This document shows, piece after piece, positions 6,590-18,291 of a DNA stretch of 64,000 nt (position 1 is the first letter of the stretch; each line of letters begins with the position of its first letter). Under the pieces are notes generated by a model that was not told the origin of the DNA, did not search any database, and saw only the letters and a program-made list of their open reading frames with translations. Position numbers and translations under genes: made by a program. Source of the stretch: Calditrichaceae bacterium (lineage in GTDB: Bacteria > Calditrichota > Calditrichia > Calditrichales > JBFXGD01); assembly GCA_050178385.1 (NCBI GenBank), contig JBFXGD010000002.1, positions 842 to 64,841 of the forward strand. Reading direction: 5' to 3'.

Positions 6590-7687
6590 ATGCACGAGAC
6601 TTTTTCTGTTGAAGCATTGATGGCATTGTACTCGATTCCTTCTATCGGTTCAGCCAAAATGCGAAAATTAATTTCCATTTTTAATTCGCCGCAGGCGGTG
6701 TTGGATGCAAGCGCTCGTCAATTGATGCATGTGGAAGGCATCGATCATAAAACCGCCGAAAAAATTAAGAGCGGTCCGGATGAAAAATTTGTTCGTGAAC
6801 AAATGGAGCTTATAAAATCTCACGAAGTCAAAATTTTAACATACTGGGATAAGCAGTACCCGGAAAGACTAAAACGAATTTATGATCCCCCGGCATTTTT
6901 GTTTGTCAAAGGAAATACGGATTGTCTCAACGGAACGGGTATCGGGGTTGTGGGTTCGCGGGTACCCAGTACTTATGGTAAAATTATTACTGAACAATTT
7001 GCCCGTGAACTCGTGCAGAATGATTTTACGATCGTTAGCGGATTTGCCCGTGGGGTCGATACAATAGCGCATAAAACAGCAATAAAAAACAATGGAATTA
7101 CGATTGCCGTTCTTGGAAACGGGGTTGATTTGGTATATCCTTCGGAGAATGTGCAGCTCCGTTCAGAGATTTTGAGCAAAGGCGCCGTTATAAGTGAATA
7201 TCCGATGAAGACGAATCCTGACGCAGTAAATTTTCCAAAAAGAAACAGGATCATAAGCGGTTTAAGTTATGGGGTATTAATCACGGAGGCGGGGGCAAAA
7301 AGCGGCGCCCTTATCACCGCATTTTACGCCCTTGATCAGAATCGCGAAGTTTTTTCTGTCCCGGGGCCTATAAATTCAGGGAAAAGCGCCGGTACGAATC
7401 GACTAATAAAAGAGGGCGCCAAACTTGTACAGGGCGTTCAGGATATACTTGTTGAACTTCCTGGGCAGATAAACCTGACAGGCAAAATAAAAGCTGCGGT
7501 TCCTCCACCGGATCTGAACGGATCATCAAAAGTTGTATATGATTTATTGAGCAGCGAACCACTGTATATTGATCAGATTGCGATTAAAGCTGATCTTTCA
7601 ACCGCGGAAACTTTGGGAGTTCTGCTAAGTCTTGAGCTGATGAATCTTATCCGGCAAATGGCGGGCAAAATGTTTGTTCGATTATGA
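6590..7687 (+). CDS. dprA: DNA-processing protein DprA (Smf)
   Basis: GSRVPSTYG, SGFARGVDTIAHK and AGAKSGALITA motifs typical of the DprA Rossmann-like domain. C-terminal winged-helix-like tail. Confidence 0.92.
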   Translation: MHETFSVEALMALYSIPSIGSAKMRKLISIFNSPQAVLDASARQLMHVEGIDHKTAEKIKSGPDEKFVREQMELIKSHEVKILTYWDKQYPERLKRIYDPPAFLFVKGNTDCLNGTGIGVVGSRVPSTYGKIITEQFARELVQNDFTIVSGFARGVDTIAHKTAIKNNGITIAVLGNGVDLVYPSENVQLRSEILSKGAVISEYPMKTNPDAVNFPKRNRIISGLSYGVLITEAGAKSGALITAFYALDQNREVFSVPGPINSGKSAGTNRLIKEGAKLVQGVQDILVELPGQINLTGKIKAAVPPPDLNGSSKVVYDLLSSEPLYIDQIAIKADLSTAETLGVLLSLELMNLIRQMAGKMFVRL

Positions 7688-7693
7688 CGATGT

Positions 7694-7724
7694 AAAAAAA
7701 ATGGCAGGGGTCAATACCTGCCAT
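7694..7724 (-). terminator. Intrinsic terminator for the minus-strand redox/two-component block (may also stop dprA read-through)
   Basis: Perfect 8-bp stem ATGGCAGG/CCTGCCAT (7701-7708 and 7717-7724) with an 8-nt loop. On the minus strand the hairpin is followed by a T7 run (plus-strand A-run 7694-7700). Confidence 0.8.
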
Positions 7725-7760
7725 TCATGTCTTAATTAAGAAGAATATTCGAAATTTCTA

Positions 7761-8924
7761 TTAACGTTTGAAGAAATCGTTAACCACCGTTTCAAGTTCT
7801 TTATCTTTTAACCCTGAAAGCTCACCTAAATAAAGATGACCGTCAGCCGGAAATTTATCTTCATCTTTGGATGCTATCGCTACCTTTTTGATAAATTCCT
7901 GCACCCGCTTAATGTCAGTATGATAAAAACTTACCGCGCTTTCACCGATTTTTAAATCTTTGATCTCTAAATCAAGCTGTGATGATTCCAGTTTACAAAT
8001 CCAGTTTTTGTCATATGTGGTAGTATCAAGTCTGTCGAGATCATCAAGCAGCGCTTTGTTGATCTTCTCAACTTTACCCGATACAGGTGCGTTGAAAGGG
8101 ATTGAATGCGTACCCTGGCGGATACTGAAAAGATTTTGCCCTTTTTTGATTTCCATCCCCAGATTGGGAAGTTCGATGGAATCAATTTTACCGATTAATT
8201 TTTTTGCAAAATCGTCAATACCCACATTCACTTTTCCGTCCTGGTCAATTCCGGCCCAGCAGTGGCCCTCGGAAATGAAAACACCACCTGGGATGGAAAA
8301 TTCGACCGAGGCCGGAATCTGTGTGTCTGTCAGATGTGTAATATTAACCTGAGGAACAAGCTGCCGATGGATGCGCTCTTGTCTTGTGATCAGTGATTTT
8401 TTGATCATGGCGAGCAGTTCATCTTCAGTAAACGGCTTCTGAACATAATCCAACGCACCGAATTTCATAGTCTCAACAGCTGTTTCGACAGACGCGTAAC
8501 CGGTAATAACAATCACATCTATATCCGGCCGCAAATGTTTTACGCTTTTGCATACATCCACACCATCCATTTCGGGCATTTTTAAATCGACAAATACAAA
8601 ATCATAATGGTGTTTTTGTATTAATCCTAACGCCTCTTGTCCTGATTCAACGGTATCGACGCAATATCCGTCAAGGACAAGAATTTTTCTGAAGCTGTCA
8701 AGAATTACGGCTTCGTCGTCTACCGCAAGAATTTTAGCTTTAGGATTCTCAACTTCGACGCGTTTAAGGCTTTTAGCCTCATGAGTGAAATCCAGATTCA
8801 GGCTGACTTTAAGCGCTTCTTCGCGTTCACCTAAAATTCTTTTTGTGTTGATTTTTTTGATTATCATGCGAATGATGATATCTGCAATCACAAAAAGAAT
8901 GACTGCTAAAACTAAAAATAGCAT
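7761..8924 (-). CDS. Membrane-anchored response regulator: N-terminal TM helix + REC + GcvH-like domain lacking the lipoyl lysine
   Basis: Hydrophobic N-terminus MLFLVLAVILFVIADIIIRMII. REC motifs LAVDDE, FVFVDLKMPEMDG (Asp113), VITGY, QKPF. Residues ~215-325 align by eye to glycine-cleavage H protein (HCWAGID.DGKVNVGIDDFA..IGKIDSIELP..G......APVSGKV..IN..L). The position of the lipoyl-Lys (ESVKA in E. coli GcvH) reads QGTHS. I see no DNA-binding or AAA+ domain. Confidence 0.75.
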   Translation of the reverse strand: MLFLVLAVILFVIADIIIRMIIKKINTKRILGEREEALKVSLNLDFTHEAKSLKRVEVENPKAKILAVDDEAVILDSFRKILVLDGYCVDTVESGQEALGLIQKHHYDFVFVDLKMPEMDGVDVCKSVKHLRPDIDVIVITGYASVETAVETMKFGALDYVQKPFTEDELLAMIKKSLITRQERIHRQLVPQVNITHLTDTQIPASVEFSIPGGVFISEGHCWAGIDQDGKVNVGIDDFAKKLIGKIDSIELPNLGMEIKKGQNLFSIRQGTHSIPFNAPVSGKVEKINKALLDDLDRLDTTTYDKNWICKLESSQLDLEIKDLKIGESAVSFYHTDIKRVQEFIKKVAIASKDEDKFPADGHLYLGELSGLKDKELETVVNDFFKR

Positions 8925-8996
8925 TTTTTGGCTCCTTGGATAAGATATACATTTATAATCACATTATAAGTTTAAATTTATTTTTTCTGCTCTCCT

Positions 8997-9803
8997 CTAA
9001 ATTCTGTCTGAGCTGCAGGGTGTTAAATGCTTTAGTTCGTATTCAAGGTCAGAAGGAATGATACGATAAAACCACCCTTTGAAATAGGGATCCTTTTCTA
9101 TAATCTGTTTATCCTTCAGCAAATGATCATTTATTTCTATAATTCTTCCCGTCATCGGCGCAAGAATATTGTGAACAAGATTATCAGTAGTGACAAGTTG
9201 GGCACACGCGTTACCCTGGACAATCTCTTCATCCATATTTAAAAGTTCTATATGGTCAATGCTGTCAACCGTTCTCAAAAGCAAATCTGTGATGCCTGTT
9301 AATACAGAACCGTCATGTTCGATGTAAAGCCAGCTCCCATAACCTAGACGAAAATATTTTGCGGGGCAGGGGATATATATAATCGATGCATCATTTTTTA
9401 CTGAATTTACATGTTTTAAAGATTTATTTATTTCAGCATATTTTAAACCCCGAAAAACAGAACTCAGCAGTTCATCTACCGTAAATGGTTTTGGCAGAAA
9501 ATCTATCGCGCCTGTGTATAACGATTTTACCGCATTTTCAACCGTGGAATATCCGGTAGTCATTATAACCGGAGAATCCAGATTCTGAGGAATGATCTCA
9601 TCCAGAAACATAAAACCGTCCATCTCAGGGAGCATAATATCACATATGATCAGCCGGTATCTGTTTTTGGCGATTTTATTCAAACCTTCATTCGCGTCAA
9701 GCGAAGAATCAACACTAAAGCCTTCGTTGGTACAAAGTTTGATTACGGAATCAATGATCACCTGTTCATCATCAATAATAAGTATATCATATTCTTTGCT
9801 CAT
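8997..9803 (-). CDS. Response regulator: REC + GcvH-like domain lacking the lipoyl lysine
   Basis: REC motifs IIDDEQ, LIICDIMLPEMDG, MTTGY, LPKPF. The C-terminal ~115 aa is GcvH-like (WLYIEHDGSVLTGITDLL..VDSIDHIELL......LAPMTGRIIEIN..L......DPYFKGWFYRI). The Lys position reads TTDNL. No HTH recognisable. Confidence 0.75.
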   Translation of the reverse strand: MSKEYDILIIDDEQVIIDSVIKLCTNEGFSVDSSLDANEGLNKIAKNRYRLIICDIMLPEMDGFMFLDEIIPQNLDSPVIMTTGYSTVENAVKSLYTGAIDFLPKPFTVDELLSSVFRGLKYAEINKSLKHVNSVKNDASIIYIPCPAKYFRLGYGSWLYIEHDGSVLTGITDLLLRTVDSIDHIELLNMDEEIVQGNACAQLVTTDNLVHNILAPMTGRIIEINDHLLKDKQIIEKDPYFKGWFYRIIPSDLEYELKHLTPCSSDRI

Positions 9804-9817
9804 CGGGATTCCTGATT

Positions 9818-11689
9818 TTAACTTGCTGACCTGGTGGCCGGGATCCTCATCGTGAAGGTTGTCCCTTCGCCGATATTGCTGTCGACGGTTATGGTACCGT
9901 TATGATTGTCAATAATACCCCAGATGATCGCCAGGCCAAGCCCCGTGCCTCGCTGGCCTTTTGTTGAATAAAATGGTTCAAATATGCGATAGAGATTCTC
10001 TTTTGGAATGCCGCATCCCGAGTCCGAAATTTTAATCTCTATAAATTCCCTTTTACCTTCCAGTTCAATCATCTTCCAGTTCTGCCATCCGCAATCCCTG
10101 TTTGTACAGCCGACAAACTCACCCTGTGTTGGAATTTCAAATGAATACACGGAAGATGCGCATTTTGGGCATTTGTTGTTTTTTTCTATTAGCGAAATAT
10201 CGCAATGGGGGCACAACAACTGTAGCGACTTATTTTTACTATATTCGATACCAAAGTAATGCCTTGATTTCCCGTAGATCGGGTCGAGATTAACAAAACC
10301 GGAGCTGCCGTTTGAAAGCGCCTTTAGTTTAATCGAAGGTAAACCGTCGATTTTAATTTCATTGTCGATAAGACTGTGTCCTTTTGGACAAGCGGCTCTT
10401 TTAATCTGCATATAGCCTTTTGGTGGAACAAAAAGTAAAGATGTTGACACATTTATGTTTCCACCGTTTTTCCCGATTGCATCATTCGCGTTAACCACCA
10501 GGTTGATAAAAACCTGTTCTATCTGGTTGGCGTCAATGGTTACTTTTGGCAGCTGTATATCAAGGTTTTTAATAATTTTTACATTGTTGATGGTCAATTG
10601 ATTCTCTACCACACCAATCGCGTGGTTAAGAATATCATTGATGTTCGAATTATTTTTTTTCGGAACTGATTGTCTGGCAAAATCCAGCAGTCCTTTTACA
10701 ATTTCCCTGCTTCTTTTTGTTTCTCTGACAATTACTTCTAAATCCGATTGCAATTCCGAATTGCCCTTGGTCCTCTTTAGTAAAAAACTGCTGTATGTTA
10801 AAATCCCGGTCAGCGGGTTGTTAATCTCGTGCGCGACGCCGGCCGCGAGACGGCCAAGTGAGGCCAGTTTATCTGATTGAAATAACTGCATTCTGGCTTC
10901 GGATAATTTTTGCGTCATGTTGTTAAATGAACGGGCAAGCATTCCCAATTCATCATTGCTGTGTTCCTTAATCGTGTAGTTCAGATTTCCGGCGGCGACA
11001 TTCTTCGTAGCCTGTAGCAGAGTGTTCACCGGTTTGTCAACCAAACTTTTCACGAAGTACCAAACGGTGCCGCTCAGGAGAATGATGGCAATGATGGCAA
11101 ACATGAGCATTTTGAATTTTGTTGACGCAATCTGATTGTCAATTGCCTTGATGGAAATAGTGACATCGAGGACGCCAAGAACGGTTTTTTCAGATGCGTG
11201 TGCATGACAATCGGCTTCCCAGCAGGAAGGTTCATTATAAATCGGATTAATTATACCTAACACCCTGGAAGAATCAGGTGCTAATTTATAGACACGCGTG
11301 CGCTTTTCAATCTCAAGTTTTTCCAGGGGTTTATTAGCCGCGTGACAAGCGTAACATGCTTCGGTCTTTTTGTCAACCATATGTCCGATTGCAGTAGTAT
11401 CAGAAGAATAGATGATCTCTCCTTCTTTATTAAAAACCCGGACTTCGTTAATGCAGGGTTGATTCCCGATTGTCTGAATAATGTTATGGATATGCGCGCG
11501 TTCATTAAGAAGCATTCCGTATCTGGTGCTATTCTTAACCGTTTCGCTTAGTTGGTTGACATGTCTCTCCACCTCATCAAAAAGAGCCTTACTCTGAGAT
11601 TGTACGTTCAGATAGGCAAATACGAATATGATGATGATGGTTGCCGTTCCTACGGCGGAGATTAATTTAAATCCAATTTTCTTGAACAT
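9818..11689 (-). CDS. Sensor histidine kinase: two TM helices, periplasmic domain with c-haem-type motifs, HAMP, DHp, and a HATPase domain split by a Cys-rich insertion
   Basis: TM1 at ~res 9-28 and TM2 at ~193-213. Between them lie CYACH (res 112-116) and CWEADCH (156-162). HAMP-like 214-265. H-box AGVAHEINNPL. N-box NLVVNANDA. Then a ~128-aa insertion (res ~418-545) containing CPKGH, CPHC..x10..CPKC and C-x4-C. This is followed by G1 DSGCGIP, the F-box FEPFYSTK and G2 GTGLGLA. Confidence 0.85.
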   Translation of the reverse strand: MFKKIGFKLISAVGTATIIIIFVFAYLNVQSQSKALFDEVERHVNQLSETVKNSTRYGMLLNERAHIHNIIQTIGNQPCINEVRVFNKEGEIIYSSDTTAIGHMVDKKTEACYACHAANKPLEKLEIEKRTRVYKLAPDSSRVLGIINPIYNEPSCWEADCHAHASEKTVLGVLDVTISIKAIDNQIASTKFKMLMFAIIAIILLSGTVWYFVKSLVDKPVNTLLQATKNVAAGNLNYTIKEHSNDELGMLARSFNNMTQKLSEARMQLFQSDKLASLGRLAAGVAHEINNPLTGILTYSSFLLKRTKGNSELQSDLEVIVRETKRSREIVKGLLDFARQSVPKKNNSNINDILNHAIGVVENQLTINNVKIIKNLDIQLPKVTIDANQIEQVFINLVVNANDAIGKNGGNINVSTSLLFVPPKGYMQIKRAACPKGHSLIDNEIKIDGLPSIKLKALSNGSSGFVNLDPIYGKSRHYFGIEYSKNKSLQLLCPHCDISLIEKNNKCPKCASSVYSFEIPTQGEFVGCTNRDCGWQNWKMIELEGKREFIEIKISDSGCGIPKENLYRIFEPFYSTKGQRGTGLGLAIIWGIIDNHNGTITVDSNIGEGTTFTMRIPATRSAS

Positions 11690-11732
11690 TTTATTCTTTC
11701 AGATGTCGAATTTTGTTGACTATGACATTAAG

Positions 11733-11794
11733 GGCGGTATGCATAATTTGAAAATTTCAGGGTTTGCCCGCGTGATTAAAGGATGCATACCGCC
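11733..11794. repeat. 12-bp perfect inverted repeat with a 38-nt spacer between the cytochrome gene and the kinase gene
   Basis: GGCGGTATGCAT (11733-11744) and ATGCATACCGCC (11783-11794) are exact reverse complements. They sit in the 156-bp gap between the cytochrome stop (11846) and the kinase start (11689). Confidence 0.7.
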
Positions 11795-11845
11795 TATTCT
11801 TATCTTACATAATATTACGAAACAAATATATGCCTGATCAATAAT

Positions 11846-13009
11846 TTAAAGTTTTGTTTTTGTTAAGCTGCCTGGCATTGCAGCCGGGTATTTATAATTA
11901 TCATGGCAATTGTCACATGTCGGTTTTTTGTTAAAATTGAGATCAATATGGCATGATTCACAATCCATTGCACTATGGTTTTCATCAAGGACTAATCCGG
12001 TTACGCGATGTTTGAATGACTCGGGATTCCAGTTTTTGTGACAGCTGGTGCATGTTGGATTCAGACTTGAAAAGATTTTATTCTCGCCATGACAAGTCTG
12101 ACATCTAAGGGATGCGTGGTAACTTTTGAGCGGCCATTTTGCGGTAACAGAATGGTCGAACGGTCCCTTTTGCTTGTTGCTGTGACACTTAGTACAATTA
12201 TCATCAGCATGGCAGGAGAAGCAGGTTTCATGTTTTTCATCAACTGATTTACTTGCAGCTACAGGTTTTGCCGTGGCTACCTGTTCCTTATAAGTTGATT
12301 TTGAAAGGTCGTGACAACGACTACAGCTCTCGTTGGTATGACAATCAACGCATTTAAATCCAAACTTTCCTGAATGTTCATTATGATAGAAAGTCACATA
12401 TTTGCCCTCTTTGGCCGCGGTTTCGTAAACCACTTTATCCGGTTCTGTAATCTTTGGGTGTTTTGAGCCAATAATGTCACTTTGATCAGAAATCTTTTTC
12501 TCGGGAGAGGCGGCACCTTTTAAAACATGGCATACATTGCAGTCAGTTGTATGACTCCATTCGCGGTGACAGCTTAAACACTGCCGGTGATAGGCGCCTT
12601 TTAGGCCCGGTTTGCTGAGATCAGCTCTTATGGGTTCTGTCTCATGACATTCCTTACACGCGGCAATCTTACCGGGAGGGTTATGATGATGACATGATGT
12701 ACAGCTTCCGGACATTTGTCCCATTTCAGCATGAAGCCTGTGCGGGAAAACCGTCGGTTCGTATATGTTTGATAAAATATCGATATTCAAAGTATCGGGT
12801 CCCTCATCAGGAGTATGGTGAATGGTTACCACATTCCGTTTAAATTCAGGGCAGCATGTAAGACACGGGTCCGCTTCCGTCGGATTGTCGCAGCTGTGAC
12901 AGGATTTGCAATCCAGAGCAAGTTTTGAATGATGTTCAGTACTGACTGTCTGTGCAAACAGCGGGGTGATGATGAGTAAAAAGCCAATAATCAGATTTAA
13001 TTTTTTCAT
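11846..13009 (-). CDS. Periplasmic multihaem c-type cytochrome (13 CXXCH motifs, cytochrome c3-family-like)
   Basis: Signal peptide MKKLNLIIGFLLIITPLFAQ. There are 13 CXXCH motifs: CKSCH, CTSCH, CKECH, CLSCH, CNVCH, CVDCH, CSRCH, CFSCH, CTKCH, CQTCH, CTSCH, CESCH, CDNCH. No CXXCK motif is present. The ATG overlaps the upstream gene's stop (ATGA at 13006-13009). Confidence 0.9.
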   Translation of the reverse strand: MKKLNLIIGFLLIITPLFAQTVSTEHHSKLALDCKSCHSCDNPTEADPCLTCCPEFKRNVVTIHHTPDEGPDTLNIDILSNIYEPTVFPHRLHAEMGQMSGSCTSCHHHNPPGKIAACKECHETEPIRADLSKPGLKGAYHRQCLSCHREWSHTTDCNVCHVLKGAASPEKKISDQSDIIGSKHPKITEPDKVVYETAAKEGKYVTFYHNEHSGKFGFKCVDCHTNESCSRCHDLSKSTYKEQVATAKPVAASKSVDEKHETCFSCHADDNCTKCHSNKQKGPFDHSVTAKWPLKSYHASLRCQTCHGENKIFSSLNPTCTSCHKNWNPESFKHRVTGLVLDENHSAMDCESCHIDLNFNKKPTCDNCHDNYKYPAAMPGSLTKTKL

Positions 13010-14250
13010 TTTGCAGCCCCTCGAATAGCGAATTTTGTTTTTGGCCTATATCCTTTAACCGGTTGGCTTATAACAGGGAATATCAAAACGAGGGTGCGGT
13101 ACAACAATACTTCAAGAGCGATAAAGCCTACCGTGACGGAAATTTCTCCGATTGACGGGAAATATGAATTCATTGCATAAGGTGGTGTGTAGGCAACGAT
13201 AAAGGTATTGATTCTGTTTATCAGTACTCCGAATATCACCAAAAGAGAAGCAGTGAATAACCAGGATGGGGATTTCAGAGCTTTATTCGAGAGGAAAATC
13301 CTTAGAGGGATAATCACGCCGAACAGCATTTCAATGATAAACATTATGCTTTCGATATTGAAATCGAGTAAATAAACATAGGTTCCCCGAATAACCATAT
13401 CGCCTATTTTAAATGCAAGGTAAATTCCCAACAACGGGCCGATTATACGTCCCAAATTGGAGAGTACATGCATTTCTCTTTTTAGTCCAAAGGACTTTGA
13501 CGCGATCATAGATTCAAGAACGACCATCGGAAATCCAACAGAGATCGCGGAGAGTAAAAACAGAAGTGGCGCGATAGGAGTCTGCCAGAGCGGGTGAATC
13601 TTAGAACCTGCTAAGATCATAAGTGTTCCAAGGGATGACTGATGCAGACAGGATAACACAACACCGGCAATCAAAAAGATGAACATGGCCGGATTCAGAA
13701 TTTTGTCAAGAAATTTTAGCAGTGATTCCAGGGGTTTTACAAGACCTGCCAGAAATCCGTTTAAATGCACCTGACCTTTAAACCGCTCAATGACAACAGG
13801 GATAAATTCAATGTACAAAACAGTGAGATATGTCATCACGCATATACCGACTTCGAACAACGCTGAATTTCCGTTCCACATATACATGACATGATAAATA
13901 GAATAATAACGTCCGAGATCAATAAAGACTCCCAGGGCGACAAATGTATATCCTAACATGGCTGTGAGCAGAGCAGGACGTACAATAACGTGATAGTCTC
14001 CTCTATGGAAAACATGTCCGAGCGCGGCAGTTGTAAATCCTCCCGCGGCAAGGGCTACTCCCGCAGCCACATCAATGCCGATCCAAATACCCCATGGATG
14101 CTGATTGTCAAGGTTAGTTACTGCTCCAAGTCCGAATACAAATCTCAATAAAGCGAATATCAAGCCGTTTACAGCTAGTATCGTCAAGAAAATTACACCG
14201 GGTGTAAAAAATTTTTTTTCAATACGAGCAGGTTTAATCATTTCGTCCAT
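13006..14250 (-). CDS. NrfD/PsrC/HmcC-like integral membrane quinone-interacting subunit
   Basis: 414 aa and almost entirely hydrophobic, with about 10 predicted helices. Its N-terminus and overall layout resemble the polysulfide reductase NrfD family. It is flanked by an FeS subunit and a cytochrome, as in Hmc/Nhc/Qrc-type complexes. Confidence 0.8.
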   Translation of the reverse strand: MDEMIKPARIEKKFFTPGVIFLTILAVNGLIFALLRFVFGLGAVTNLDNQHPWGIWIGIDVAAGVALAAGGFTTAALGHVFHRGDYHVIVRPALLTAMLGYTFVALGVFIDLGRYYSIYHVMYMWNGNSALFEVGICVMTYLTVLYIEFIPVVIERFKGQVHLNGFLAGLVKPLESLLKFLDKILNPAMFIFLIAGVVLSCLHQSSLGTLMILAGSKIHPLWQTPIAPLLFLLSAISVGFPMVVLESMIASKSFGLKREMHVLSNLGRIIGPLLGIYLAFKIGDMVIRGTYVYLLDFNIESIMFIIEMLFGVIIPLRIFLSNKALKSPSWLFTASLLVIFGVLINRINTFIVAYTPPYAMNSYFPSIGEISVTVGFIALEVLLYRTLVLIFPVISQPVKGYRPKTKFAIRGAAK

Positions 14251-14259
14251 TATCGCCTC

Positions 14260-15153
14260 CTACTCAACTTCTTCTTTGTTCTTGTTGATCCACATGATAC
14301 CGCCAAGCAGCGCATAAAGAGATACCGGTGGGATAAAATATTTAAATATTGCGTGCTGAATGGCTTCCGATACGCCGGGCGCCGGGTTATCAGCTAATTT
14401 TGGGAAATCCAGATCAGCGAAATCTGTCGATGAAAGATACAGCCATGATGTACCGCCGACTTCTTTCTCACCGTAAATATGGTCAAAATATTTTTCGGGA
14501 TTCTTTTTGATTCTTTCACGGGCGATTTTTAACAGATCGGAGCGTTTTCCATAGGTCAGAGCTTCCACAGGGCACATTTCTACGCATGCCGGAAGCAGAC
14601 CTTCTTTTGTTCTTTCAAAACAAAAATCACATTTTTGGACCTGTGGCGTAAGAGCATTTTTGTATTCATAGGAAGGGATCTGAAAAGGACAGGCGACCAT
14701 GCAGTACCGGCAGCCGATACACTTATTGACATCATATATCACCGATCCGTTCTCTTCTTTAGAAAGTGCGCCTACAATACATGCGGAAACGCAAGCCGGG
14801 TGATCGCAGTGCATGCACTGGACCTTGACGTTTATGGGGTATTTACCTCCATTGTTGTTGTCATATTCATTAACAACGGTGTGACCATCAAAATCCGGCC
14901 TTCTTAATTTTTCAAACACAGACCGGTCATCATATGATTCAATCGATCCGGTAGGGAAATCATGTGCCTTTTTACAGGCATACTCACATTTTCGGCAGCC
15001 AATGCAAACGGTCGTGTCAACAAGCACGCCCATCCGATCTTCCATCAATACATTTTTGGGGGCAGCCTTTGCCTGCTTGGCTCCCACACCGGTTAGACCG
15101 GCACCGACCAATCCGGCGGTTTTGAAAAAATCGCGTCGGCTCTGTTTACCCAT
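14260..15153 (-). CDS. TAT-exported 4x[4Fe-4S] ferredoxin subunit (NrfC/HybA/HmcB-like) with a C-terminal TM anchor
   Basis: Twin-arginine signal SRRDFFKTAGLVGAGL. Four Cys clusters: CIGCRKCEYAC, CMHCDHPACVSAC, CIGCRYCMVACP, CDFC..x13..CVEMCP. Hydrophobic C-terminal helix YFIPPVSLYALLGGIMWI. Confidence 0.88.
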   Translation of the reverse strand: MGKQSRRDFFKTAGLVGAGLTGVGAKQAKAAPKNVLMEDRMGVLVDTTVCIGCRKCEYACKKAHDFPTGSIESYDDRSVFEKLRRPDFDGHTVVNEYDNNNGGKYPINVKVQCMHCDHPACVSACIVGALSKEENGSVIYDVNKCIGCRYCMVACPFQIPSYEYKNALTPQVQKCDFCFERTKEGLLPACVEMCPVEALTYGKRSDLLKIARERIKKNPEKYFDHIYGEKEVGGTSWLYLSSTDFADLDFPKLADNPAPGVSEAIQHAIFKYFIPPVSLYALLGGIMWINKNKEEVE

Positions 15154-15267
15154 TTTCGACTCCTTGTATTCGATTTCAAAATAATAATTTCACAAAATCA
15201 GCACGACAGATAAACTAATCGCACAAATATTTAATACCAATAGAACCATTCGTTACAGTTGGTGATA

Positions 15268-15281
15268 GCAAAATTTGTGCC
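15268..15281 (-). promoter_or_regulatory. Candidate sigma-54 (-24/-12) promoter for the nrfC-like operon
   Basis: The minus strand reads aaaGGCACaaattTTGCta, which is GG-N10-GC with exact spacing and a good -12 TTGCT. It lies ~115 nt upstream of the ATG at 15153 and is followed by an AAGGAG RBS. Confidence 0.5.
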
Positions 15282-15376
15282 TTTCTTTCGGAGAACGCGT
15301 TTTTAGATGATTTAATCTGTTAAATCTATGACAACGCTGCTTCCTCGCAATGGGTGGAATTTTACTTTCTCAGGTT

Positions 15377-15401
15377 GGATTAATAATTTTCGGATTAATA
15401 A
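15377..15401. repeat. Direct repeat GGATTAATAA x2 (15-bp period) upstream of the sigma-54-like promoter
   Basis: GGATTAATAA occurs at 15377-15386 and again at 15392-15401. Confidence 0.6.
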
Positions 15402-15404
15402 ACA

Positions 15405-15454
15405 AAGTGTTTCAAAAAGTGTTTCATACGGGATAATTAAAATAGTATGTTTCA
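15405..15454. promoter_or_regulatory. Three copies of a GTTTCA-containing motif; candidate upstream activator sites
   Basis: AAGTGTTTCA at 15405-15414 and 15417-15426 is a perfect 10-nt direct repeat with a 12-bp period. A third copy, TATGTTTCA, is at 15446-15454. The motifs are 125-175 bp upstream of the -24 element on the minus strand. Confidence 0.4.
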
Positions 15455-15918
15455 AAACCTGTTAAACAATGTTAACCTGATAAAAATAAATGAATTATCA
15501 TTCAGTTGTGGAACATTTTGTTCCTGTTTTTTTTGATTTCACGCCCTGATTCTCGGGATAAATACTTTCAAAAATCAATTTTTATTAGAAACGAAGGATT
15601 ATTTTTTCTGAATGTTTACCGCTTTCGCATGTTGACCGAAGCCTGGATTAAATATAAATATTGAAAATATTTGTACCAAATAAAATAATTTAAAATACAT
15701 TTTTCCAATTTTTAATAAAAATACTCCTTTTAAACCCGCAGAAGCGCTTCGCAAAATCCGATGCAAATAATATTAAATAATGGAATTTCAGTCATTTAAC
15801 CGTATATGTTCAAGTATCCTATTAAACTGGATTTAATGAAATAAAATTAATTGAATGAATGGTATAATATTTGTAACTTTAATATTTAATAACATTGCAA
15901 GCGGAGGACTATTAAATA

Positions 15919-16797
15919 ATGTACAAAATTGTTGAAGCAGGCTTTCTTGCGGAAAATATTAAACGTTTTGTGATTGAAGCGCCGAGAATTGCCAGCAAAC
16001 GAAAAGCGGGTCAATTTGTTATTATACGAATTGATGAGCATGGCGAAAGAATCCCTTTGACCATCGCGGATTCCGACAAAGAAAAGGGAACGATTACGAT
16101 TATTGTCCAGGGGATTGGAAAAACCACAAGCGCTCTGAATCTGAAAGAAGCGGGAGATCAGATTCTGGATGTTGTCGGACCGTTGGGGCACGAGTCTGAA
16201 ATCGAAAAATTTGGTACTGTCGTAAGTATTGGCGGCGGAGTGGGAACGGCAATTGCTTTTCCGACAGCGGTTGCTCTAAAAGATGCCGGAAATTATGTGA
16301 TCACAATTAACGGCGCCAGAAGCAAGGATATGGTTATCCTGGAAGATGAACTAAGGTCAGTAAGCGATGAGGCATACGTGACTACTGATGACGGATCTTA
16401 CGGATTCCACGGTTTTGTAACCCAGAAACTGCAGGAACTGCTCGATGCCGGCAAAAAAATTGATTTTGTTCTGGCCATTGGTCCGATCCCGATGATGAAA
16501 GCGGTAGCCGAAGTGACACGGCCGTATAAAATAAAAACAATTGTCAGTCTGAACCCCATTATGGTTGACGGTACAGGAATGTGCGGTGGATGCCGGGTTG
16601 TTGTGGGTAATGAATCTAAATTTGCCTGTGTTGATGGTCCGGAATTTGACGCGCATCTTGTCGACTTCAAAAATCTTTCCGACCGGAACAAGATGTATTC
16701 CAAACACGAGAAACTATCACTGGAAAAATTCAAACACGAATGCAATCTGGATAAACAGGCTAAAGCGCACAAGGAGCTCGAACAAGTTGAGAGCTGA
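15919..16797 (+). CDS. nfnA: NADH-dependent reduced ferredoxin:NADP+ oxidoreductase subunit A (NfnA / SudB-like FAD + 2Fe-2S subunit)
   Basis: MYKIVEAGFLAENIKRFVIEAPRIASKRKAGQFVIIRIDEHGERIPLTIADSD..GTITIIVQGIGKTT is typical of NfnA/SudB. C-terminal CGGCRV...C cluster motif. Confidence 0.85.
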   Translation: MYKIVEAGFLAENIKRFVIEAPRIASKRKAGQFVIIRIDEHGERIPLTIADSDKEKGTITIIVQGIGKTTSALNLKEAGDQILDVVGPLGHESEIEKFGTVVSIGGGVGTAIAFPTAVALKDAGNYVITINGARSKDMVILEDELRSVSDEAYVTTDDGSYGFHGFVTQKLQELLDAGKKIDFVLAIGPIPMMKAVAEVTRPYKIKTIVSLNPIMVDGTGMCGGCRVVVGNESKFACVDGPEFDAHLVDFKNLSDRNKMYSKHEKLSLEKFKHECNLDKQAKAHKELEQVES

Positions 16798-16863
16798 TTT
16801 TTAAATTATTTAGAAATTTAATATTTAGAAGAAATAAATTTAAATAAAAAAAATGGTGAACGA

Positions 16864-18291
16864 ATGCAAAAGTTGACAGCAAAAGAACGCATGAAAATAG
16901 CCCGGCATCCTATGGTTGAACAGGATCATCTGGAACGGGGACATAATTTCAAAGAGGTAAACCTCGGATATACCACTCAGATGGCACAGGAAGAGGCGTT
17001 AAGATGTTTACAATGCGCGAAGCCGACATGTGTACAGGGGTGTCCGGTTAATATACAAATTAAGGATTTTGTTACTCTGATCGCGGAAGGTGATTTTATT
17101 GGTGCCGTGCACAAAATTAAAGAAGACAACGCTCTCCCCGCGATTTGCGGACGTGTTTGTCCTCAGGAAGAGCAGTGTGAGCAGGTTTGTGTCGTGGCGA
17201 AGAGAGGCGAACCTGTTGCCATTGGAAATCTGGAACGGTTTGTGGCTGATTATGAAAGAACAAGCGGGAAAGTCGAACTGCCGAAAGTGGGAGCTCCAAC
17301 TGGGAAAAAAGTTGCTATAGTTGGCAGCGGTCCGGCCGGATTGAGCTGCGCTAAAGATATGATTCAGATGGGACATAAAGTGACCGTATTCGAAGCGCTC
17401 CATGAGTTGGGCGGGGTGCTGGTCTATGGAATTCCGGAATTTCGTCTGCCGAAAGATATCGTGCGGCAGGAAATCGAAGGTCTACAAAAAATGGGCGTTG
17501 AGTTTGTTACCGATGCCGTAATCGGAAGGACAACCACTATCGATGAACTCATGGAAGAAGAAGGGTATGACTCCGTGTTTGTTGGCGTGGGCGCCGGACT
17601 GCCATGGTTTCTTGGAATTCCTGGTGAAAATCTGATCGGAGTTTATTCGGCAAATGAATTTCTTACCCGTGTTAATTTGATGAAGGCGTACGATTTTCCA
17701 AATTTCGATTCGCCTGTTTTGGATTGCAAAGATAAGAATATTGCTGTTTTCGGTGGTGGCAACACCGCGATGGACTCAGTACGCACCGCGCTCAGGTTAG
17801 GAGCGAAAAACGCTTATATTGTATATCGCCGTTCTGACAAGGAAATGCCGGCACGCGCTGAGGAAGTAAAACATGCCAAGGAAGAGGGAATCCAGTTTCT
17901 GATGCTGACGAGTCCGCTTGAATTTGTCGGGGACGAAAGCGGCTGGCTGAATTCCATGAGATGCATCAAAATGGAACTTGGTGAACCTGATGCATCGGGC
18001 CGGCGGCGTCCGGTACCCATTGAAGATTCAGAGTTCGTTATGGAAATTGATTTGGCAATTATCGCTATCGGAAATGGATCAAATCCCCTTATCAAACAAA
18101 CTTCACCCGAAATAGAATTCACAAAACGCGGCACGATCGCCGTTGATAGTGAGACAATGAAAACATCCAAAAAAGGCGTGTTCGCCGGCGGGGATATCGT
18201 AACCGGCGGGGCAACAGTCATTCTGGCGATGGGGGCCGGCAGAAAAGCCGCGGCCGCCATGAATGATTTTATGAATAACGGCGATTGGTAA
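16864..18291 (+). CDS. nfnB: NfnB / glutamate synthase small-chain-like (GltD/SudA family) FAD/NAD(P) oxidoreductase
   Basis: N-terminal FeS motifs CLQCAKPTCVQGCP and CGRVCPQEEQCEQVC. Dinucleotide folds VAIVGSGPAGLSCA and VFGGGNTAMD. C-terminal GVFAGGDIVTGGATVI. Confidence 0.88.
   Translation: MQKLTAKERMKIARHPMVEQDHLERGHNFKEVNLGYTTQMAQEEALRCLQCAKPTCVQGCPVNIQIKDFVTLIAEGDFIGAVHKIKEDNALPAICGRVCPQEEQCEQVCVVAKRGEPVAIGNLERFVADYERTSGKVELPKVGAPTGKKVAIVGSGPAGLSCAKDMIQMGHKVTVFEALHELGGVLVYGIPEFRLPKDIVRQEIEGLQKMGVEFVTDAVIGRTTTIDELMEEEGYDSVFVGVGAGLPWFLGIPGENLIGVYSANEFLTRVNLMKAYDFPNFDSPVLDCKDKNIAVFGGGNTAMDSVRTALRLGAKNAYIVYRRSDKEMPARAEEVKHAKEEGIQFLMLTSPLEFVGDESGWLNSMRCIKMELGEPDASGRRRPVPIEDSEFVMEIDLAIIAIGNGSNPLIKQTSPEIEFTKRGTIAVDSETMKTSKKGVFAGGDIVTGGATVILAMGAGRKAAAAMNDFMNNGDW

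Follow-up and report, generated by a model that had tools for sequence, protein, structure and literature searches.

In a 64-kb stretch of the genome of a Calditrichaceae bacterium (contig JBFXGD010000002.1; hereafter the window), three adjacent genes on the minus strand encode an iron–sulfur (FeS) protein, an NrfD-family membrane protein, and a cytochrome c with 13 haem-binding motifs, and we consider it probable, at roughly two-thirds (0.68), that this trio represents a quinone:multihaem-cytochrome oxidoreductase that operates without a catalytic subunit. The trio is the front part of a six-gene operon that continues with a sensor kinase and two response regulators. Modules of this general type are already known, but the 13-haem cytochrome family and the separate HybAB/HmcBC-like clade of its partners are undescribed as far as we found, as is the conserved association of two non-lipoylated GcvH-like regulators with a kinase that has a predicted haem sensor. 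In sediments, aquifers, and bioelectrochemical systems, the Ignavibacteria, Calditrichia, and Zixibacteria are abundant groups, and to our knowledge the link of their quinone pool to periplasmic or extracellular redox chemistry is poorly mapped. As at least 554 species-representative genomes encode a related cytochrome (one genome was scanned per species, and the count is a lower bound), mostly those of Ignavibacteria and Calditrichia and also those of Zixibacteria and a few other lineages, the trio is a strong candidate for a main quinone–cytochrome junction in these phyla. Cultivated hosts exist with Ignavibacterium album and Melioribacter roseus. The operon is not mentioned in the M. roseus multi-omics paper or in the C. 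abyssi genome paper, and we found no paper that deals with receiver–GcvH regulators or with 13-haem cytochromes of this type.

Three coupled genes and their products

The gene of the FeS protein (14260..15153, minus strand) is followed, after a 9-nt gap and with an AGGAGG upstream, by the gene of the membrane subunit (13006..14250, minus strand), which in turn overlaps the cytochrome gene (11846..13009, minus strand) in an ATGA. A sequence-only reading of this DNA had already described the three open reading frames (ORFs) with these coordinates and their features, as well as both junctions, and all of this agrees with our analysis. The 4-nt overlap of the membrane subunit and cytochrome genes also occurs in 35 related loci. 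Among all ORFs of at least 60 aa in the six frames of the 64 kb, CXXCH motifs are found in the cytochrome and, besides it, only in the adjacent kinase, which has one, and exactly 13 such motifs are present in 118 of the 120 closest homologues of the cytochrome. Therefore, the trio is no chance pattern. Our synteny sample comprised 80 fetched loci and four from contig look-ups, and in 71 of 73 loci the cytochrome gene is immediately preceded by the FeS and membrane subunit genes.

The FeS protein (297 aa) carries a twin-arginine motif (SRRDFFK) near its start, which is present in 70 of 72 relatives, and its 16 Cys residues are arranged in four [4Fe–4S] cluster motifs (C50/53/56/60, C113/116/121/125, C145/148/151/155, and C175/178/189/193). 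Pfam matches are Fer4_11 (E 6e-22) and TAT_signal. The protein can be aligned with Escherichia coli HybA over the full length, with 36% identity, and this includes the hydrophobic C-terminal tail, which aligns with the tail anchor of HybA and stays under the Kyte–Doolittle threshold of 1.6 that was used for transmembrane segments. The membrane subunit (414 aa) has 10 hydrophobic segments and no cofactor motifs, matches Pfam NrfD (E 7e-20), and is 33% identical to E. coli HybB over the full length; a sequence search against the PDB gave no match at E≤1.

With the curated NCBIfam models, the FeS protein reaches 338 bits for HmcB (cut-off 420) and narrowly misses the cut-off for HybA (258 versus 263 bits), and NrfC (101/378) and QrcC (59/400) are distant. 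Correspondingly, the membrane subunit scores 361 bits for HybB (cut-off 450) and 262 for HmcC (cut-off 550), and here QrcD (114/570) and NrfD (31/348) are far away. The two proteins had been labeled NrfC-like and NrfD-like, and these labels have to be replaced, as the scores identify them as HybA/HmcB-like and HybB/HmcC-like and place them far from NrfC/NrfD and QrcC/QrcD. In eight diverse relatives, the picture is the same, with 314–339 bits for HmcB and 243–257 bits for HybA in the case of the FeS protein, and with 341–375 bits for HybB and 255–306 bits for HmcC in the case of the membrane subunit, and no cut-off is reached.

The residues of the quinone site and of the proton half-channels of HybB have been listed by Calisto and Pereira, and mutation of R89, Y99, E148, or H184 impairs hydrogenase-2 (Hyd-2) (PMC8076601). 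The quinone-site residues D58, D109, S129, and E133 and the proton-path residues R89, Y99, E148, and H184 are invariant in all 75 family members analyzed. The window protein shares these eight residues with HybB, along with Y141, E155, S186, S187, E291, K198, H200, and R329, and each of the sixteen is kept in at least 74 of 75 relatives. Other positions are exchanged in the family (S190 to T, R265 to K, and E268 to D), and S105, T63, and S95 are not conserved. Because the scores of nine members are below the cut-offs and the HybB residues are nevertheless conserved, the FeS/membrane pair can be placed in the HybAB/HmcBC group as a clade of its own that has the predicted functional residues of a quinone-reactive, proton-conducting subunit.

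The cytochrome (387 aa) has a signal peptide for Sec export to the periplasm, and a motif count confirmed the 13 CXXCH motifs and the lack of any CXXCK motif that had been noted before. One N-terminal haem is followed by a c3-type tetrahaem domain and by eight further haems. The tetrahaem domain matches Pfam Cytochrom_CIII (PF02085) at residues 83–161 with 57.8 bits (gathering threshold 22.9), and the Pfam families Cytochrome_C7 and c3_2 match over residues 270–370. In a sequence search against the PDB, HmcA and NhcA match residues 66–166 only, and a small tetrahaem cytochrome weakly matches residues 294–376. The NCBIfam model of HmcA (NF045713) gives 46 of the required 400 bits, at residues 56–162 only, and that of NhcA (NF045784) 31 of 640. 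An AlphaFold2 model of the cytochrome (predicted local distance difference test score, pLDDT, 75.5) was matched in Foldseek by NhcA and HmcA over 115–170 columns only, with a TMq of about 0.2. The cytochrome can thus be assigned to the c3 superfamily, and its recognizable resemblance to HmcA and NhcA is confined to the tetrahaem c3 domain at about residues 60–165. A difference from HmcA and NhcA had been proposed earlier, and the family indeed differs from both in haem number and shares only about 100 residues with them.

All 13 motifs and 11 further His residues are invariant among 74 cytochrome sequences. The family comprises 171 clusters at 50% identity (E≤1e-30), and the haem counts across it range from 5 to 17, with a mode of 13; therefore, 13 haems mark a subfamily and do not represent a unique design. 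Among the more distant relatives are giant proteins (P0377, P0418, P0496, and others) with up to 94 CXXCH motifs in 2321 residues, which consist of repeats of the C-terminal haem module. The exact cytochrome sequence had no record in the public contigs that were looked up.

The earlier reading had also stated that a catalytic partner is not encoded, and this holds for the annotated part of the window as well as for the flanks of related loci. Pfam annotation covered 47.5 kb of the window and yielded no catalytic gene but housekeeping genes as neighbors; the region of 47.8–64 kb was scanned for CXXCH motifs and for homologues of a paralogous cluster that is described below. Likewise, none of 80 related loci encodes a catalytic subunit. 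Neither the eight exceptional related loci whose flanks were inspected ORF by ORF nor the contig look-ups showed an evident gene for a hydrogenase or molybdoenzyme.

At the upstream end of the operon, about 115 nt before the FeS start codon, there is a sigma-54-like −24/−12 element with one mismatch (AGGCACAAATTTTGCT, 15267–15282, minus strand), which is the only one-mismatch site of this kind in the window. A sigma-54 promoter as a conserved feature was rejected, since comparable sites occur at 3 of 68 related FeS genes versus 15 of 395 control windows. A gene for a 115-aa protein abuts the FeS gene in one Calditrichota genome (L001:7511-7858), and by eye this protein has a likeness to NifB/NifX-type cofactor-binding domains. 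Such a small gene is absent from the window and was found in few loci only.

The signalling genes of the operon

The boundaries first drawn around the three genes were too narrow: three more genes, encoding the kinase and both regulators, follow up to an intrinsic terminator, and they are kept downstream of the trio in 56 of 65 loci of Ignavibacteria and Calditrichia. The terminator that closes the six-gene operon (7699..7726, minus strand) has a stem of 10 bp, 5 of them GC pairs, and a T-run behind it, and it is the strongest terminator-like site within 7600–16000. The spacer between the cytochrome and kinase genes (11690..11845, minus strand) contains a 12-bp perfect inverted repeat (GGCGGTATGCAT...ATGCATACCGCC) and has a predicted RNA fold of −34.3 kcal/mol (z −2.68). 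It was not called as an intrinsic terminator, and an Rfam scan of 7000–16500 gave no match; the repeat might determine how much of the structural part is transcribed relative to the regulatory part.

The sensor histidine kinase (9818..11689, minus strand) has two transmembrane segments (residues 9–27 and 195–213) that enclose a periplasmic Cache/PDC domain, and HAMP, HisKA, and HATPase_c domains follow according to Pfam. The periplasmic domain contains a CXXCH motif (CYACH) and a CX4CH motif (CWEADCH), both conserved in relatives. Its AlphaFold2 model (pLDDT 83.5) has a Cache/PDC fold, for which the best matches are WalK with its extracellular domain (E 1e-7) and GSU0935 of Geobacter with its haem-c sensor (3b42, E 1e-5, TM-score 0.47). 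In its predicted fold class and its putative covalent-haem motif, the domain resembles the haem-c PAS/Cache sensors of the Geobacter chemoreceptors GSU0935 and GSU0582 (3b42, PF21563). Unlike these, however, the sensor has the second motif (CX4CH), sits on a kinase and not on a chemoreceptor, and fits WalK better overall; its score for PF21563 is 23.5 bits, below the cut-off of 27. Another peculiarity is a conserved insert of about 125 residues (about 418–540) that interrupts HATPase_c and contains CPxC...CPxC and more Cys and His residues. The insert gave only weak Pfam matches to zinc ribbons and is absent from the kinase of the paralogous cluster. As two motifs for predicted covalent haem attachment are found in the periplasmic Cache domain, the kinase most likely reads the periplasmic redox state.

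The first response regulator (8997..9803, minus strand) is a soluble protein with a receiver domain (Response_reg, E 2e-25), in which the phospho-acceptor Asp is conserved, and a GcvH-like domain (GCV_H, E 4e-15, 56 bits with a cut-off of 22.2), and it is 100% identical to a protein from a Calditrichaceae metagenome-assembled genome. The second response regulator (7761..8924, minus strand) is membrane-anchored by an N-terminal transmembrane helix (residues 4–22), after which a receiver domain (E 3e-30), a highly conserved GcvH-like domain (E 2e-18, 67 bits with a cut-off of 22.2), and a conserved C-terminal extension follow. In the column of the lipoyl-lysine (K65 in E. coli), the first regulator has D or N in 42 of about 60 sequences and the second has N, Q, S, or T in 45 of 56, and Lys is not among the four commonest residues of this column in either family. 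The GcvH-like domains of the regulators are therefore not lipoyl carriers. With Pfam, no DNA-binding domain was detected in either regulator. The kinase probably phosphorylates both response regulators, and we infer that these act by protein contacts at the membrane. The operon thereby makes it possible to study, in a well-defined setting, a response-regulator output domain to which no function has been assigned, namely the GcvH fold lacking the lipoyl lysine.

Proposed function and relation to known systems

A survey by the Palmer laboratory described modules in which the gene of a Tat-exported, tail-anchored ferredoxin is immediately followed by that of a HybB-like quinol oxidase and then by one or two genes of periplasmic cytochromes (10.1101/2023.11.02.564894). 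The order of FeS, membrane subunit, and cytochrome genes, which the sequence-only reading had called unusual, has thus already been reported. The trio shares with these modules the Tat signal and C-terminal tail of the FeS protein, the gene order, and the lack of a catalytic subunit. In the Palmer modules, the cytochrome is frequently an octahaem protein of the tetrathionate-reductase family, conserved flanks are lacking, and no role has been assigned (10.1101/2023.11.02.564894), and the octahaem cytochrome and the unconserved flanks are to be understood as typical traits rather than strict requirements. The trio differs in its 13-haem cytochrome of the c3 superfamily and in the conserved kinase and receiver–GcvH-like genes downstream. 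A second comparable system is Cbc4 (CbcSTU) of Geobacter sulfurreducens, a proposed quinone:cytochrome c oxidoreductase without catalytic subunit and without an assigned physiological role (10.1101/2025.04.14.648717). Cbc4 follows the same logic as the trio, in that a cytochrome is combined with an FeS protein of four clusters and with an integral membrane subunit. In contrast, CbcS is a membrane-anchored tetrahaem cytochrome of the NapC/NirT family, and its locus tag (GSU0068) precedes those of the other two genes (GSU0069-0070), whose products were compared with those of the trio by logic only. Hyd-2 HybAB, NhcABCD, and Qrc are further quinone-reactive modules of the NrfD type (PMC8076601). 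The trio had been regarded as a minimal quinol:cytochrome oxidoreductase of a Hmc/Nhc/Qrc/Cbc-like kind; of this proposal, the broad kinship with Hmc, Nhc, and Cbc can be retained. By score, both subunits are far from QrcC and QrcD.

Our model builds on what was observed, namely the signals for targeting, the motifs for cofactors, the conservation of the quinone and proton residues, the coupled genes and their operon, and the lack of a catalytic gene. The HybB-type subunit, with its 10 helices and no cofactors, would bind quinone near the periplasmic face and provide a proton path to the cytoplasm. The Tat-exported, tail-anchored ferredoxin with its predicted four [4Fe–4S] clusters would sit on this subunit in the periplasm, and the soluble 13-haem cytochrome would serve as a wire to periplasmic or outer redox partners. 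If the three proteins form one complex, electrons could pass from quinone via the chain of four clusters to the 13 haems, or in the reverse direction, and, like Hyd-2 and Qrc, the complex may be coupled to the proton-motive force. As to the direction, we lean slightly toward quinol oxidation with outward electron flow, because the hosts are organotrophic and multihaem genes are occasionally found in the neighborhood. Bis-His-coordinated c3-type haems usually have low potentials, and with these haems and the precedents of Hyd-2, Qrc, and Nhc, the trio would also be suited to reduce quinone with periplasmic donors.

Several points weigh against this model. Low potentials of c3 haems fit an electron input to quinone as well as an output from quinol, and the whole case is inferred from sequence. 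All scores are under the curated cut-offs of the characterized equivalogs, and the function could thus have diverged. The cytochrome is counted into the putative complex by gene coupling. In 9 of 65 loci the signalling genes are absent, which means that the link to the kinase and regulators is not obligatory.

A first alternative starts from the similarity to E. coli Hyd-2, whose HybB is the best overall match of the membrane subunit and whose HybA shares the tail-anchor topology of the FeS protein. The two proteins could be a HybA/HybB-type anchor of a periplasmic hydrogenase or of another enzyme that is encoded elsewhere, with the cytochrome as an accessory. HybB is the top NCBIfam match, HybA was missed by only 5 bits, the full-length identities are 33% to HybB and 36% to HybA, and the functional residues of HybB are kept. 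However, all nine members tested remain below the HybA and HybB cut-offs, and hydrogenase subunits or other catalytic genes were found neither in the annotated part of the window nor in the flanks of the eight related loci, where the neighbors are unrelated. A multihaem cytochrome gene is present instead, and always so, often with the 4-nt overlap to the membrane subunit gene. A hydrogenase anchor is therefore clearly unlikely in our view.

It is just as improbable that the trio mainly feeds a signal, by equilibrating the quinone pool with periplasmic haems for the haem-c kinase, and has no part in bulk respiration. The tight and conserved linkage with the kinase and two regulators in one operon would fit such a role, as would the lack of DNA-binding outputs and the fact that the paralogous FeS/NrfD cluster also has a GcvH-like protein and the same sensor kinase. 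But the trio occurs alone in Zixibacteria and other lineages, its 13 haems, sixteen Fe–S ligands, and conserved proton path look like an energy-transducing machine, and a two-component system beside the operon that it controls is common.

A true transmembrane complex of the Hmc/Nhc type, which in sulfate reducers passes periplasmic electrons to a cytoplasmic acceptor, is very unlikely. Hmc consists of HmcABCDEF, with a 16-haem HmcA, the cytochrome b HmcE, and the cytoplasmic CCG protein HmcF, and Nhc has a nine-haem NhcA and the small membrane subunit NhcD. The Desulfovibrio systems resemble the trio in that a multihaem cytochrome of the c3 family goes together with a four-cluster, tail-anchored ferredoxin and an NrfD-family subunit of 10 helices. 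HmcA and NhcA are the top structural matches of the tetrahaem domain of the trio cytochrome, which can be aligned with their C-terminal c3 domain. HmcB is the top match of the FeS protein, and a ‘deltaproteobacterial’ locus (L083, see below) pairs a 13-haem homologue with near-Hmc partners. Nevertheless, the haem number is 13 and not 16 or 9, with similarity over only about 100 residues, and the cytochrome gene is the last of the trio but the first in the Hmc and Nhc systems. Scores remain below the cut-offs, among them those for HmcA and HmcC, and the host lineages, Calditrichia and Ignavibacteria, are not sulfate reducers. Genes for HmcD, HmcE, and HmcF are absent from the operon, where the kinase and two regulators follow the cytochrome, and from the related loci, and no fourth structural gene that could correspond to NhcD lies beside the trio. 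The hmc operon is likewise followed by a receiver-domain gene, rrf1. Rrf1 was considered as a receiver–GcvH protein and rejected, as one preprint aligns it with single-domain receivers such as CheY and finds it structurally similar to one, and it is probably without this output domain. An NrfABCD-like nitrite reductase system, which the general domain content of NrfC-like and NrfD-like proteins might suggest, can be dismissed by the motif and score tests, as there is no CXXCK motif, no pentahaem NrfA or NrfB, and no score for NrfC or NrfD that comes near the cut-offs.

Returning to the quinone:cytochrome oxidoreductase, the regulators might have a more direct role. These receiver–GcvH-like proteins, one of them membrane-tethered, might bind to the NrfD-type subunit at its cytoplasmic face and be direct, phosphorylation-controlled modulators instead of transcription factors. 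We regard this idea as speculative and rather unlikely. It is based on three different FeS/NrfD pairs that each have GcvH-like proteins next to them (non-lipoylated in the tested cases), namely those of the operon described here, of the paralogous cluster of Ignavibacteria, and of the Hmc-like locus L083. If it were true, a respiratory quinone module would be gated at the post-translational level by a haem-c kinase that reads the redox state of the periplasm.

Related loci and neighboring genes

The loci without signalling genes are mainly of the Zixibacteria type, and the trio stands alone there among unrelated genes. The trio can therefore function without the signalling genes. Large extra multihaem cytochrome genes with 8–19 CXXCH motifs each adjoin the cluster in 7 of 82 loci (for example, L046:9130-11004, L075:13246-15687, L076:5023-10466, L066:13282-16143, and L010:2728-4644). 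One Zixibacteria genome has an adjoining set of an 11-haem protein, a 585-aa protein, and a 10-haem protein that looks like a porin–cytochrome conduit. An extracellular or soluble periplasmic acceptor had been suggested for the trio, and of this suggestion the extracellular part is weakly hinted at by these occasional multihaem genes.

Upstream of the operon in the window, separated by a spacer of 765 nt and in divergent orientation, lie genes for a ferredoxin–NADP reductase-like protein and a GltD-like FAD/FeS protein (15919–18291, plus strand). For NfnA/NfnB next to the operon, the table of related loci contained no match; the gene pair in the window resembles a pair of the NfnAB or sulfide-dehydrogenase type.

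The paralogous cluster was observed in about 21 Ignavibacteria loci, such as L003, L011, L014, L021, L028, and L030, and is exemplified by L007:233-5363 (minus strand), where it is oriented divergently to the trio. Its products are a GcvH-like protein of 223 aa with a membrane anchor and without receiver domain, a tail-anchored four-cluster ferredoxin, an NrfD-family protein, a Cys-rich protein of 238 aa that matches no Pfam family, a kinase that has the same haem-c sensor, and a sigma-54 regulator of the NtrC type. The ferredoxin lacks a twin-arginine signal in 21 of 21 cases. The scan for homologues of this cluster showed that it is absent from the window.

Finally, a locus in the ‘Deltaproteobacteria’ bin617 (CP070692, L083:7256-11596) contains, in this order, a GcvH-like gene, a homologue of the 13-haem cytochrome with 43% identity, an FeS gene, and an NrfD-family gene. 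The FeS protein of this locus reaches 412 of the 420 bits required for HmcB, and its NrfD-family protein scores 399 bits for HmcC. From this order and these scores, it follows that the same cytochrome family also pairs with near-Hmc partners.

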